IMG/VR virus record: IMGVR_UViG_3300045988_101835
Length of the DNA stretch: 64,000 nt
From: a virus
Reading direction: 5' to 3' (one strand)
In this document: positions 7,403-60,896 of the stretch, piece after piece
How the letters are laid out: each line of letters opens with the position of its first letter
Position numbering within the stretch: the stretch's first letter is position 1
The notes under the pieces: model-generated
What the model saw: only the letters and a program-made list of their open reading frames with translations
The model's database searches: none
What the model was told of the DNA's origin: nothing
Program-made: the position numbers and the translations under genes

Positions 7403-7422
7403 CAATTATATATCCCGGAAAT
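7403..7422 (+). promoter_or_regulatory. late-promoter motif copy 1
   Basis: CAATTATATATCCCGGAAAT, 33 nt upstream of ATG 7455. Confidence 0.6.
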
Positions 7423-7454
7423 CTTGGTAGATTTCTGGGGTATTTTGTTTGGTT

Positions 7455-7988
7455 ATGAATGAAGGTTTGATTTGCGGTTTATCGCGTGTTGAGGATTCTC
7501 TGGATGATTTGTATTCGGAGGCCTATGTTGCTTCTATGGGCCAGCTTTTGGAGATTGCGGCCTGCGAGGAGATTCTGGCTTGGGCACAGTATGCTGTAGT
7601 TTCTCCCTATCTTGTTGGCGAGGAGCGTGCTAACATCGAGGAGCTTTTCAATACGAATGCCAAGGACGAGCTTGACGATCATTTCTGGAAGCTCCAGAAC
7701 CGCATGAATGAACTTCAGTACGTCCCTAAGACGTTATTTGACTTTTCTAAGATTCAGTCTACCGCCCGTTGTGAGTACCATATCCCTACGGATGTTGCGG
7801 ACTTGATTACGCTTCTCAAGCAGAATATCGAGTCGGAGGAGTGCGCTATTCGCACTTACCAGAATATCATTATGGTTGCCCGTGATAATTCCGATTTTGT
7901 CACGGAGCGTATTGCTAAGGAGATTCAGGACGACGAGGCTCAGCATCTCTCGGACTTGAATGACTTTTTGGCCGACTTGGAGTCTTAG
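7455..7988 (+). CDS. ferritin-like (four-helix-bundle di-iron type) protein
   Basis: About 177 aa. ExxH-type motifs (EECAIRTY...DDEAQHLSDL) are spaced as in ferritin/rubrerythrin-like proteins. Confidence 0.45.
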   Translation: MNEGLICGLSRVEDSLDDLYSEAYVASMGQLLEIAACEEILAWAQYAVVSPYLVGEERANIEELFNTNAKDELDDHFWKLQNRMNELQYVPKTLFDFSKIQSTARCEYHIPTDVADLITLLKQNIESEECAIRTYQNIIMVARDNSDFVTERIAKEIQDDEAQHLSDLNDFLADLES

Positions 7989-8108
7989 TTTTTAGATTGC
8001 CGCCGTCACTGCACTGATGGCTGACAGTTGCCTTTATATTGTGTGTGCCCTCTGGGGATCGCCATCGTGCAGGGTGGCGTCCCTTTGGGGGCTTTCTAGT
8101 TTGGGTCT

Positions 8109-11100
8109 ATGGGGTCAGTTAAGGATACGATACAGCGTCGGGGTGGTGTTGCTTCTGCCGTCAGCGACTTGCTTCTTACGGAGCGCAAGCTAGTAGGATT
8201 TCGGGAGTTTATTCTTTCTCCAGACTATATGGCTTTGGAGGGGGTCTATCCTTTCTGGTTGAAGGAGGCAGATAACATGCAGGATGACTTGTCTTCACTG
8301 GTGTTGACAGGCTCATTAGGAGGCGGCAAGTGCGTAGTTTACAGCGACTTGGTATCGACGGATCATGGGTACGTTCCTATTGGGTCTTTGGTTCCAGATG
8401 CGGGTTATGGCTTCACACCGTTCGAGGTTGGTGTCGAGCAGCCAGATGGTAGCTTTGCGCAGACGAGTCATTTCTACAAGGAGAAGGACGCGGAGGTGCT
8501 TCACTTGCGTTGTGCTAGTGGTCGGAGTTATAGTGGTACTGCGGATCATCCTCGGTTAGCTTATCGTGTCGGCTCGGATCGCGTTGAGTTGGTTCGCTGT
8601 GGCGACTTGCGTGTCGGTGATTATATCGCCCGCCGTTGGACAGGTAGTATCGAGTTGCATCCGGACGCAGATGAGGCTAAGCTTTATTGCTTGTATGGTG
8701 TCTGGCTTGGGGATGGTCATTTTGATAATGCTGTTCCTCACAATCCAGTTATAGGTTATTTGTCATGTGATACTTTAGCTGATTGGTGTCGTGAGGTTGA
8801 AGGCTATTTGACGAGTAATGCTCATATTTGTAAAGAGAGTGGCTGTCGGTTATATTCGTTGCCGTTGTATCGCTCTAGGCTTCGTGATTTTATAGGTGGT
8901 TACTGTGTCGCTAATACGAAGTATATTCACAGTGCTGCTTTCGGAAGTCGTGAGCGTGCATTTTACACGTTGTATGGTTTGCTTATTACAGATGGGTATG
9001 TAAATAAAGGTCATGGGACGCTTGGGTTTGCTACAGTTTCTCCGCGTTTGGCGGATGGTGTATGTAGCATTCTCGACTATCTTGGTTTGCAGTATAGCAT
9101 CCGGAAGCGTACAGATCGCAAGTATTTTTATAAGAAGGTTGGTGAGTGGCGTCCGGCGCAGGACAGTTATCGGATAACTATATCAGTTGAGTCATCGCAT
9201 GCTTTATACGATGCTATGCTAGCTTACGTTCCTCTCCTTGAGATGGATGCTCCGCATCAGCGTCGTCTTATTGAAGGGCTTCGTGCAGATTTTGAGGCTC
9301 GTGCTAGTAAGAGTTCTCGAATAAACTGTAAGACTACTTTCAAGTTAGAAGGTGCTGAGGTTGGCATAGTGGCGCAGCTGCGTTCGGTTCGTCAGTTGAC
9401 GGATGTGTCGACGCGAAATAAGTTTGATTCTTATGCTAGGACTACCCATTCTATGTTGGGGAATAAAGCTGCATCCAATCAGGCTTTCGAACGTTTGCGA
9501 GCGTGGTTGGAGGATCGAGGTCAGACGTTGCCGGACAACTTGGCTTCTTTTTGTGATGTTCGTTTTGACCGAATTGAGAGTATTGATACGACGGTTGAGG
9601 ATGTTTATGATGTTACAGTTCCTTCGACGCATTTGTTCATGTCGGGGAATGTGGTGAATCATAATACGTCTTACCTGAATATGGTTACTTGCTATAAGTT
9701 GTATTGCTGGTTTAGTCAGGGCGACTTGTATAACTATTTTCAAATCCTTCGTGGTACGCCTATTTACTTTTTGTACTTCTCTGTATCGATGAAGGCTGCG
9801 GAGCGTTCTGGTTTCAAGCAGTTGCGACAGATGATTGATAATGCCCCGTGGTTTAAAAATAATTTTCCGCGCCGTAAGGACATTCAGTCTTCCATTCAGT
9901 TTAATAATAATTTCTCAATTGAGTTTGCTTCGGGTGAGAGTCATGCTATTGGTTTGAATGTCGTTGGTGCTATTATTGACGAGGCTAATTTCAGGAATGG
10001 TGTCGGTCAGGGTACTGTTTCAGAGTATTCGGAGGTCCAGCGTTTGGCTCAGCAGTTGGAGGACCGTATGCATTCTCGTTTTACCCGTGAGGGCGGTAAG
10101 TTGATTTCTTTCATGGGGTACATTTCCTCGGCTTCTTATCAGTCTTCGTTTATCGAGGAGAAGGTTGCCGAGTTGGCATCTGATCCGCAGGGTCGTGTTA
10201 TTAATGCCGTTCAGTATAAGATTTGTCCTCAGAATTACTCGCCTAAGAAGTTCGAGGTGTTCTGTGGCTACCAGCAGATTTCCCCGTGTATTGTCCAGAG
10301 CAAGGAGCATAAGGCTACGCTTGTGAAGTCTATGAGTCTTCCGAAGTCTAAGGCGGAGGGTTATTTCGAGCGTGTTCCGGAGGATCTGAAGTCGCAGTTC
10401 AAGAAGAACATCTATCTGGCCATCCAGAATCATTGCGGACGTTCTACAGCGGCTAAGGGTAGCTTCATCACGAACTATGATGTCGTTCGCAAGGCGTATA
10501 GTGATGCGTTGCTTCGTGCGTGTCCTTTGGTTCAGAGTAGTATTGTTGTCTCGGATCAGGACGATACTCCTATCCGCTCTGTTCTGGATATTTCACGTTT
10601 ACAGTATACGGATCGTCCTCATGCCCTGTGCTTGGACTTGTCTTTGACGGGCGACCACGGTTCTTTGTGCTGTGTTCGGTTTGATGGCTATGCGGCAGAC
10701 GGCAGGGCTTTGCATAATGAGGTTTTCAACTTAGAGCTTGTTCCTCCGGCGTTTCCGGGGATGTTGAAGGTTTCGAAGGTCGAGGATTTCATTTTGTGGC
10801 TTGCAGAGCATTTGAATATTGTGGTTTTTAGTACTGACCAGTTCCAGTCCACGCAGCTTCGTCAGAATGTGTGCGAGGCTTTGATGCTTCCGGATATCCG
10901 CCTTTCTTTGGATAGTTCCGACATTCCTCATTTGTTGTGGCTTTCGATGTTAGTTGACGAGCGTCTTGGTCTTCTTTACTTGGAGCGTCAGGATCGAGAG
11001 ATTCGGGAGGCGGTCCATGATGTTGTCAAGCATAAGGTTGTCAAGCGTGACGGGTCTTCAGACGACCAGTTCCAGACTTTGGTCGGTGCCTTCTTCTTGT

Positions 11101-60375: not shown

Positions 60376-60395
60376 CAATTATATATCCCACAAAT
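60376..60395 (+). promoter_or_regulatory. late-promoter motif copy 9
   Basis: CAATTATATATCCCACAAAT, 17 nt upstream of ATG 60412. Confidence 0.55.
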
Positions 60396-60411
60396 CAAAA
60401 TTTTGTAGGAT

Positions 60412-60858
60412 ATGCGATTTCCGATTGAGGTTCATAATAAGTTCCTTCCCTTTCCGGGGTTTAGTTGGATGACGTGGCTTGTGTTCTGTTTCACGCGCAA
60501 GCCGAAGGACGTCCATCTGGAGGGTACTACTCGCCGACACGAGTTGGTTCACGTGGTGCAACAGGGGGAATTAAGCGTCTTGTTTACCGTCATCCTCCTT
60601 CCCATAGCCATCCATTTTAGCTTTGCATGGTGGGCTTGGGTTCTGACGATTCTGGGTATTCTGTTTGCGGGTTGGATTTGCTATGGTATTAGTAATGCCA
60701 TAGAGTTCTTTTGTCCTCCGTTTGGCAAGAGCTATTATTACACGTGCTGGGAGACGGAGGCTTATAATCACGAGGGCGATCCGGGGTACTTGCGTCGTAG
60801 GATTCCGATCTGGGGTTCTTTGAAGCACATTCCGAATCGGCTTGTGCGTCATAAATAG
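60412..60858 (+). CDS. membrane protein with an HExxH metalloprotease-like motif
   Basis: 148 aa. RRHELVHVVQQGE resembles the HELxHVxQ signature I associate with DUF4157-type domains. Two hydrophobic segments follow. Confidence 0.4.
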   Translation: MRFPIEVHNKFLPFPGFSWMTWLVFCFTRKPKDVHLEGTTRRHELVHVVQQGELSVLFTVILLPIAIHFSFAWWAWVLTILGILFAGWICYGISNAIEFFCPPFGKSYYYTCWETEAYNHEGDPGYLRRRIPIWGSLKHIPNRLVRHK

Positions 60859-60877
60859 TGTTTACTTTTTGGTTCGA

Positions 60878-60896
60878 GCATTATATATCCAACATC
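60878..60896 (+). promoter_or_regulatory. late-promoter motif copy 10 (variant lacking one A)
   Basis: GCATTATATATCCAACATC, 61 nt upstream of ATG 60957. The hairpin AAGACCAC-ATAGA-GTGGTCTT (60901-21) lies between them. Confidence 0.4.

Follow-up and report, generated by a model that had tools for sequence, protein, structure and literature searches.

Nine exact copies of a 13-mer, CAATTATATATCC, lie in the 64,000-nt stretch of viral DNA analysed here (IMG/VR record IMGVR_UViG_3300045988_101835; hereafter, the window). All are on the + strand, and 0 of 100 dinucleotide shuffles contained any copy. Each copy is followed at a fixed distance by AAAT and stands close to the start of a gene. The element is very probably a promoter of some kind. 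We favour the view, which we hold to be probable, that it forms a late promoter class read by host core RNA polymerase together with a phage-encoded σ factor. On the narrower matter of the reader, we lean towards the phage σ factor acting with host core polymerase.

The element is a single conserved block

The exact copies begin at positions 7403, 11431, 15453, 17726, 25686, 29713, 39847, 43188 and 60376, in agreement with the initial annotation of the window (Table 1). Allowing up to 2 mismatches adds only 60878 on the + strand and 43565 and 52639 on the minus strand, with 1.35 matches expected. The two minus-strand matches are at chance level. Conservation extends beyond the 13-mer as first described: G is present at -1 in 8 of the 9 sites and AAAT occupies +17 to +20 in all nine. 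The full element is one block, W-W-G-CAATTATATATCC-N3-AAAT, without a -35-like element. When both strands were scanned with a 30-nt position weight matrix (PWM), the nine sites scored 32-46 bits, every other position scored below 8 bits and the maxima in shuffled sequence were at most ~7. The sites are clearly separated from the background, with no intragenic or minus-strand copies.

A sequence logo was built from 53 non-redundant sites of the phage family. It contains the same single block, W-W-G-CAATTATATATCC-N3-AAAT-t-w-w, with information confined to -3 to +24 and ~0 bits between -40 and -10; here the 13-mer, and partly AAAT, is fixed by the retrieval itself. Among near-copies, change is tolerated at 13-mer positions 1, 2, 6, 9, 10 and 13, and the central TATATAT is least variable. 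All credible genes of the window are on the + strand, and the strand bias of the motif alone therefore implies co-orientation only. The coding strand contains 32.8% T and 27.8% G versus 19.5% A and 19.9% C. Literature searches by motif string and by topic returned no description of the motif.

The near-match at 60878 (GCATTATATATCC) had been counted as a tenth copy. At the equivalent position, phages of a sister clade have the exact 13-mer, and those of the window clade are one nucleotide short (G[C/T]ATTATATATCC). Both clades carry rACATCy in place of N3-AAAT, and 60878 falls in the low PWM group. The deletion was correctly noted, but with no AAAT and a PWM score below those of the nine sites, 60878 is a conserved variant element, neither a chance near-match nor a canonical copy. 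CAATTCTATATCC is another natural variant site.

Sites lie before gene starts, some of them behind terminators

The window is part of a phage genome of ~132 kb; ERZ780154 NODE-48 (132,585 bp) encodes a σ factor 98% identical to that of the window. Recognisable genes encode a Dam-type methylase, two TnpB proteins, a clamp loader with a LAGLIDADG intein, the σ factor, a ferritin-like protein, an intein-bearing large terminase (TerL), a T4-type portal, a head-fibre-like protein, a prohead protease, the major capsid protein (MCP), homing endonucleases, an M23 peptidase, a baseplate-like protein, an SNF2 helicase, a DNA methylase, four tRNAs and a DnaB-like helicase.

Seven of the nine sites lie wholly between genes. 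Of the other two, 29713 shares sequence with the final codons of a homing-endonuclease gene and 60376 begins directly after the dnaB-like stop codon. The distances from the CC of the motif to the next ATG are listed in Table 1. The zone up to 45 nt upstream of gene starts makes up 4.8% of the window and holds 7 of the 9 sites when a crude gene caller is used (P = 2e-8). All nine fall in this zone once the head-fibre start is corrected to 15493 and 29713 is counted. Family-wide, the ATG is found 13-27 nt after CC at 40 of the 46 sites with a called open reading frame (ORF), with a median of 21 nt.

Operons of virion genes, recognisable or inferred from position, lie downstream of 7 of the 9 sites. 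The recognisable genes that follow sites are the ferritin-like gene and TerL, a 219-aa gene and the portal, the head fibre, the protease and MCP, the baseplate-like gene, and a 148-aa gene behind dnaB. The neck/tail block (25720 onwards), the sheath/tube pair (29752 onwards) and the baseplate block (39876 onwards) are presumed, being assigned by position alone; no sequence-based confirmation of sheath, tube, neck and baseplate genes was obtained for them. The gene list of the initial annotation stands for TerL, portal, protease/MCP and baseplate, and is unconfirmed by sequence for sheath, tube and neck. Its 'HExxH protein' is instead ferritin/rubrerythrin-like. That the motif heads every structural operon is roughly right but inexact. 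The gene after 60376 is not evidently structural.

Strong terminators are present directly upstream of sites 15453 and 43188, as annotated. Transcription must thus resume behind them, and no other promoter-like element is found at these places. A T-tract lies within 30 nt upstream of 31 of the 53 family sites, compared with 14% of random positions. Thus, terminator-then-motif modules look typical of the family.

Promoters of the host type are found elsewhere. The pattern TTTG-N17-23-TAnnTTTG has 13 matches in the window, all on the + strand, against 2.6 expected, and none is at a motif site. Seven are convincing Bacteroidota-type promoters (974, 2319, 13724, 20052, 52636, 54812 and 57044). Downstream of them lie early-looking genes, tRNAs, a TnpB gene and a homing endonuclease. 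Conversely, the motif is absent from the replication or early-looking regions at 1-7400 and 48.9-60.3 kb, where host-type promoters cluster. The distinction drawn at the outset between the motif and the host-type promoters holds, and the two occupy complementary regions.

The motif is conserved at orthologous positions

Scanning IMG/VR with the extended motif retrieved many contigs of 50-142 kb, with several copies each, on one strand per contig. Because these loci were selected by the motif, loci were also fetched via the σ protein as a motif-independent check. Every locus with a σ factor at least 65% identical to that of the window carries the exact motif 3-5 times per 20 kb, always on the σ strand. 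The order methylase, clamp loader, σ, ORF301, site, ferritin-like, TerL, site, g219, portal is conserved. The genes downstream of the sites are orthologues with 46-75% amino acid identity (35% for g219). The exact 13-mer is found at nearly the same distance from the ATG, and the flanks differ. At the 60376 site of the Lapin relative, the motif is intact between two flanks that have both been replaced. One relative of 132.5 kb contains at least 16 sites across 110 kb. The sister clade keeps only AAAT, and the three bases ahead of it differ freely between sites (GTT, GGT, ATA, AAG and others). The motif is also a practical marker; its multi-copy, one-strand occurrence singled out IMG/VR members of the lineage, and also a phage co-binned with a Muribaculaceae metagenome-assembled genome (MAG).

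At greater distances the motif is lost from view. In one relative, where the σ factor is 55% identical, the orthologue of site 1 is slightly altered and reads CAATTATATATCT-N6-AAAT. In loci with σ factors at most 41% identical (L105-L113, 30-41%) there was no copy with 2 or fewer mismatches, save one chance-like 1-mismatch match in L111, and no obvious alternative long repeat was seen within 10 kb on either side. In two of these loci (L110, 3610-19025; L105, 4900-11260), ATATATT or TATATAT words occur on the gene strand only, up to 60 nt upstream of starts. Many of those in L110 have TAAAG or TAAAA after them. Such words may be a degenerate relative of the motif; the cases are few and AT-rich intergenic DNA is a confounder, so this is no more than a hint.

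Near-copies are also found in arrays. In sister-clade locus L035 (10651-10804; also in L069, L073 and L085), four near-copies CAATT[C/T]TATATCC, spaced 40-55 nt apart, precede the canonical orthologue of window site 39847 by 60-200 nt. Most come after TTGCTTGGAG, AAAT is missing from all of them, and the window contains no array of this kind. These near-copies could be decoys, an array of binding sites or decayed duplicates.

A DNA site unrelated to initiation, such as the end of a mobile element, a hotspot for homing or recombination, or a signal for replication or packaging, might also recur in this manner. Selfish elements abound in the genome, with two inteins, two TnpB genes and several homing endonucleases. 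In some sister-clade genomes (L090, 5778-6945) a canonical copy travels with an inserted GIY-YIG homing-endonuclease gene (ATG 5917), which it precedes with a 127-nt leader. The insertion is between the methylase gene and a degenerate site, CAATTATAACTCC; L099, without the endonuclease, has the degenerate site only. However, nothing is conserved past -3 to +24, and there are thus no bodies or paired ends like those of miniature inverted-repeat transposable elements. Flanks are unrelated between copies. Orientation is strictly one-way, the distance to the start codon is fixed and the sites are stable at orthologous positions across clades. We consider a role of this kind most improbable, and the element is not a mobile repeat.

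A small σ70-family protein is the candidate reader

The product of 5890-6468 is, by sequence and structural model, a member of the σ70 family. It has the size and organisation of gp55, the late σ factor of phage T4, and is not demonstrably a gp55 orthologue. The initial annotation had suggested combining this protein with host core polymerase, and Pfam, fold and profile matches all place it in the family. The match to Pfam Sigma70_r2 (PF04542) is narrowly over the cut-off (24.7 versus 24 bits), and there is no Pfam match to region 4. An exhaustive profile search collected 82 cluster representatives, mostly of 175-200 aa, and 26 of the 54 aligned homologues match Sigma70_r2 at E <= 0.01. Against the PDB, the family profile matched only region 2 of extracytoplasmic function (ECF) σ factors and no gp55 chain.

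An AlphaFold2 model made with the 54-sequence alignment had a pLDDT of 88.5; with only 6 sequences the value was 40. In this model, the N-terminal half superimposes on region 2 of σE bound to -10 DNA (probability 1.0, TM 0.67, rmsd 3.7). The C-terminus forms a confident three-helix domain, and full-length alignment to ECF σ factors is weak (probability 0.5-0.66). The best viral matches in a BFVD fold search were phage σ factors, with those annotated as gp55 only at E 0.1-0.8. A gp55 profile was made from eight genuine gp55 genes, starting from a seed with 99.5% identity to T4 gene 55. Comparing the 54 homologues with these eight using hhalign gave 69% probability and E 4e-5, over only the 57 columns of the region 2 core. 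No match to the σ factor was found by tblastn against GenBank phages, and IMG/VR searches with its distant relatives P0007 and P0009 also gave none.

Every genome that carries the motif and is complete enough encodes a σ-family protein. Compared across the two clades with the motif, region 2 of the σ factor is 81% identical and the N- and C-terminal parts ~50%. The conservation of region 2 fits an unchanged recognition sequence. An ECF-type reading of the two conserved parts of the element, as -35 and -10, was ruled out; they are 16 nt apart, start to start, and ~22-23 nt is required.

Between the σ gene and site 1 lies ORF301 (6481-7386). It has no detectable family, and is fast-evolving in a conserved position, with 34-37% identity between clades compared with ~65% for its neighbours. 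ORF301 was suspected as a reader of the 13-mer when its database homologues proved 90-99% identical. It was rejected, since in the sister clade it is 34-37% identical and the motif is unchanged.

Were the σ factor to have another role, the motif might serve an unrecognised phage RNA polymerase, single-subunit or diverged two-barrel, encoded outside the window or among unannotated giant proteins. The element has no -35; it is a contiguous, near-invariant block of ~21-23 bp in which a part for recognition is joined to an A/T-rich one for initiation. This is the architecture of T7-type promoters. In addition, six large proteins of 699-1304 aa in the relatives have no Pfam or PHROG match. Even so, no RNA polymerase domain was found with Pfam or PHROG among the proteins of the window or the large ORFs (>=450 aa) of relatives. 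The unannotated giants have no NADFDGD-like motif; only L041g has one generic DxDxD match. At least two of them (L036 and L072) are themselves motif-driven and so would be late products. A σ-family protein is present and conserved in every such genome. With ~83 of the 132.5 kb of one relative covered, we regard a phage polymerase as quite unlikely. The giant ORF from 60957 to the window end was considered separately as a cryptic polymerase and ruled out; its product is acidic, of low complexity and without a catalytic motif.

Proposed position of the start site and predicted hairpins

Two geometries were compared under the σ reading. Aligning TATATATC with the T4 late promoter TATAAATA (6 of 8 matches) and applying T4 spacing would place +1 on an A of AAAT. 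It is also possible that wwAAAT is a T4-like -10 core, with the start ~7 nt further on and the 13-mer as an upstream element. We favour the first geometry because the second would leave leaders of 0-5 nt for many genes with a CC-to-ATG distance of 13-17 nt. Furthermore, the bases before AAAT vary freely and the central TATATAT is least variable. In distant relatives, an ATATAT-type word ahead of genes also seems to be all that is left, though this is weak evidence. The kinship to T4 late promoters that had been suggested from the ATAAAT end of the motif is weak, given that the sister clade retains AAAT alone, with free variation of the three preceding bases.

The second geometry could be combined with two readers. 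The 13-mer would then bind a separate activator in the manner of MotA or Mu C, and the σ factor would use wwAAAT as a T4-like -10, with the start ~7 nt after AAAT. Consistent with this, five of the nine sites read (C/T)ATAAAT in the window clade, a match of 6-7 out of 8 to T4 TATAAATA (PMC2988020). The near-copies without AAAT upstream of one sister-clade site resemble a cluster of binding sites, and conserved variant sites have the 13-mer and no AAAT. On the other hand, the three bases before AAAT are free to vary in the sister clade. Leaders of ~0-5 nt would be neither leaderless nor adequate, and the CC-to-ATG distance is 13-17 nt at a dozen sites. The two parts are only 3 bp apart, leaving no room for standard activator geometry. 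The adjacent candidate, ORF301, is fast-evolving (34-37% identity between clades) beside an invariant 13-mer. No candidate DNA-binding protein was identified. Two readers are, in our estimation, an unlikely arrangement.

A start in or near AAAT, as in the favoured geometry, would alter the folding of the transcript. The sequence GGATAT, the reverse complement of the motif 3' end, occurs within 60 nt downstream at 9 of the 53 sites, usually beside the ATG, compared with 3% expected (P ~3e-5), although orthologous sites are included and the counts are thus not independent. At sites 7403, 15453, 25686 and 60376, read-through RNA folds the start region with -12 to -25 kcal/mol; the values for RNA starting at AAAT are 0 to -6.5. 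Thus, at these four sites read-through RNA is predicted to bury the start codon in a hairpin with the motif as its 5' arm, and RNA starting at AAAT is not. The 7403 hairpin is terminator-like for read-through from the σ and ORF301 genes, and cannot fully form in RNA starting at AAAT. It is maintained in the sister clade via compensatory changes (L032: ATATATCCGGTAAA...TTTACCGGATATAT). In T4, late transcripts of gene e and I-TevI start inside a hairpin that silences earlier transcripts. The parallel would place the start site here downstream of TATATCC.

Such hairpins might also belong to an element that acts in polycistronic RNA, as an endoribonuclease processing site or as a translational operator or enhancer. 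The tight coupling to the start codon (13-27 nt) and the A/U-rich sequence suit a role of this type, particularly as Bacteroidota lack Shine-Dalgarno-based initiation. Nevertheless, many sites are right behind strong terminators and little upstream RNA would carry them. Thirteen positions are invariant, without G-U-type or compensatory variation, and the element does not fold alone. No Rfam family reached the gathering threshold in the window and the three relative loci searched. An RNA element would also leave the phage σ factor without a cognate promoter and the late operons without any promoter. For these reasons we think it very unlikely.

Table 1. Motif sites and associated features in the window.
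Feature	Position	Strand	CC to ATG (nt)	Remarks
Site 1, canonical (T-CAATTATATATCC-CGG-AAAT)	7402..7422	+	39	before ATG 7455, ferritin-like gene then TerL; orthologous site in the 65% clade, with other flanks
15-bp hairpin then TTTTGTTTGG	7410..7443	+		5' arm is the motif 3' end plus AAAT
Site 2, canonical	11430..11450	+	20	before ATG 11464 (219-aa gene), then T4-type portal 12129-13649
Intrinsic terminator, 18-bp stem and T-tract	15400..15439	+		13 nt 5' of site 3; dG -37.8 kcal/mol, z = -5.8
Site 3, canonical	15452..15472	+	27	before ATG 15493, head-fibre-like protein
Inverted repeat ATATATCC...GGATATAT(G)	15457..15498	+		motif 3' half predicted to pair with start-codon region in read-through RNA; -13.8 versus -2.0 kcal/mol for AAAT-start RNA
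Site 4, canonical	17725..17745	+	13	before ATG 17752, prohead protease, then major capsid protein 18506-20002
Site 5, canonical	25685..25705	+	21	before ATG 25720; unannotated block 25720-28604, presumed neck/tail
Site 6, canonical	29712..29732	+	26	in last codons of homing-endonuclease ORF 28689-29738; before ATG 29752; 607-aa and 168-aa genes, presumed sheath and tube
Site 7, canonical	39846..39866	+	16	before ATG 39876; unannotated genes, presumed baseplate
Terminator-like hairpin, 13-bp stem, and TTTTTGG	43139..43185	+		abuts site 8 on its upstream side
Site 8, canonical	43187..43207	+	16	before ATG 43217; baseplate-like 104-aa gene, then 910-aa gene
Site 9, canonical	60375..60395	+	23	starts directly behind stop codon of DnaB-like helicase gene; before ATG 60412 (148-aa gene)
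ATATCC/GGATAT hairpin	60377-60419	+		predicted to cover ATG 60412 in read-through RNA
Non-canonical variant site (G-CATTATATATCC, 1-nt deletion, then AACATCT not N3-AAAT)	60877..60890	+		66 nt before ATG 60957, giant acidic ORF
192-aa σ70-family protein, candidate reader	5890..6468	+		between clamp-loader gene and ORF301; 935 nt upstream of site 1

Other features of the window

The capsid protein is at most 28% identical to that of any GenBank phage, barring one 4.6-kb faecal fragment. We know of no cultured member or relative of the lineage. A near-identical phage was co-binned with a Muribaculaceae MAG. Together with the Bacteroidota-type promoters, this makes a Bacteroidales host likely, though not proven.

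The clamp-loader gene (3595-5880) and the TerL gene (8109-11414) are each interrupted by an intein with a LAGLIDADG endonuclease. The TerL intein is absent from the near-identical Lapin relative (L129) and is hence polymorphic. TnpB genes (IS605 OrfB/Cas12f-like) are found at 2370-3500, with the host-type promoter at 2319, and at 33569-34747, inside the tail-gene block. Homing-endonuclease genes at 20025-21239 and 28673-29738 are in the late region, each directly after a strong terminator. The former has the host-type promoter at 20052, and the latter ends overlapping site 29713.

Four tRNA genes, Leu(TAA), Leu(CAA), Ser(ACT) and Ser(AGA), form a cluster at 54706-56322 in an early-looking region, interleaved with host-type promoters. 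The promoters at 974-1005, 52636-52667, 54812-54843 and 57044-57075 also share much of their spacer (TTTGnAnnnTTAAATTAACTTTTyTATnTTTG). From their sequences, these four look like a conserved family of early promoters before small ORFs and tRNAs.

The giant + strand ORF at 60957-64000 runs off the window end (1304 aa in L039). Its product is very acidic, rich in Ser, Asp, Glu and Val, of low complexity and without a family match. The minus-strand ORFs at 60936-61850 and 62571-63353, which overlap it, are probably spurious. Upstream of site 39847, the intergenic DNA at 39700-39800 contains short G/T-rich repeats (GTTGTGA/GTTGTGG runs), with GGCCTTCGTTGTGG duplicated near 39686 and 39778.

Discussion

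In T4, gp55 recognises the late promoters, together with gp33 and the sliding clamp gp45 (Geiduschek & Kassavetis 2010, PMC2988020). The present phage resembles T4 in having T4-related morphogenesis genes (gp20-type portal, protease and MCP) and a small σ factor (~190 aa) of which only region 2 is recognisable. As in T4, there is one tightly conserved A/T-rich block without a -35, present about 15 times per genome at short distances before late genes. The σ gene adjoins the clamp-loader gene, and hairpins appear to tie translation to initiation inside the promoter region. Conversely, the recognition sequence is more than twice as long (~18 specified bases versus 8), and TATAAATA is not conserved except for AAAT. 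The σ factor is no closer to gp55 than to ECF σ factors and has an extra folded C-terminal helical domain. No homologue of gp33 or gp45 was recognised in Pfam, PHROG and NCBIfam searches, and all sites are on one strand. The best reading is that the element works like the T4 late system, being analogous to gp55 promoters and not a demonstrated member of that class.

Other systems share fewer features. The Bacteroidota housekeeping promoter (-33 TTTG and -7 TAnnTTTG, ~19-21 bp apart) occurs in the same genome and host and is likewise A/T-rich and near start codons, but motif sites lack its elements. Promoters of the T7/T3/SP6 class are also contiguous, near-invariant blocks of ~21-23 bp before late operons and often after terminators; here, however, a σ factor and no phage RNA polymerase was detected, and there is no sequence similarity. 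SPO1 gp28 and gp33/34, phiEco32 gp36 and ECF-like phage σ factors redirect host core polymerase, as proposed here, and region 2 of the present σ factor is ECF-like by profile and fold. The promoters of those σ factors are bipartite, with -35 and -10 elements ~17 bp apart. In the phage described here, nothing upstream of -3 is conserved.

Those refuting conditions of the initial annotation that computation can address all turned out in its favour, and we propose the following scheme. Host σ would first direct transcription from the Bacteroidota-type promoters, after which the phage would make its small σ factor (5890-6468). Bound to host core RNA polymerase, this would recognise a single-block promoter without a -35. 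The central TATATAT(CC) would act as a -10-like melting and recognition element for σ region 2, with the start in or just after AAAT. The leaders would be A/U-rich and about 8-22 nt long. Each site would open a late operon, often behind a terminator that would shield it from transcription arriving from upstream. For several genes, the motif 3' half would form the 5' arm of a hairpin in read-through RNA, hiding the start codon or terminating transcription. Transcripts born inside the motif would escape the hairpin, so that those genes would be translated from late transcripts only. More tentatively, a minimal σ factor of gp55 size may give the host multisubunit polymerase a T7-like specificity for a contiguous ~20-bp promoter, part of which doubles as the 5' arm of hairpins that stop translation or transcription of RNAs begun elsewhere. 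We put this forward as a possibility that we doubt more than the scheme itself.

Several points weigh against the late promoter reading, besides the non-independent GGATAT counts mentioned above. The existence, significance, placement and conservation of the element, its co-occurrence with the σ gene, the σ fold and the predicted hairpins are shown here by computation; promoter status, lateness, reader and start position are all drawn from sequence, and the geometry of initiation is a proposal. Neither the ferritin-like nor the 148-aa gene, two of the nine genes that follow sites, is evidently structural. With ~18 specified, near-invariant bases, the element is far longer than any known -10-only promoter and resembles the promoters of phage polymerases. 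The coverage of a 132.5-kb relative was ~83 kb, and a cryptic polymerase could sit elsewhere or among the several unannotated proteins of 700-1300 aa. The link between σ factor and motif comes from co-occurrence within one lineage, and their co-variation in distant relatives is uninformative or only suggestive. Finally, the near-copy arrays without AAAT suggest that the 13-mer can be bound outside a promoter context.

To our knowledge, the transcription programmes of Bacteroidales phages are essentially unknown, crAss-like phages aside. If the late promoter reading is right, the sites provide a map of operons and timing for a ~132-kb gut phage. Recognition of so long and strict a one-block promoter by a very small σ factor would bear on the specificity of σ factors with region 2 only. 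If true, this way of recognising a promoter would be one not described before for the σ70 family. The compact pair of σ factor and promoter would also offer a ready-made orthogonal expression switch for Bacteroidales, including Bacteroides and Muribaculaceae.

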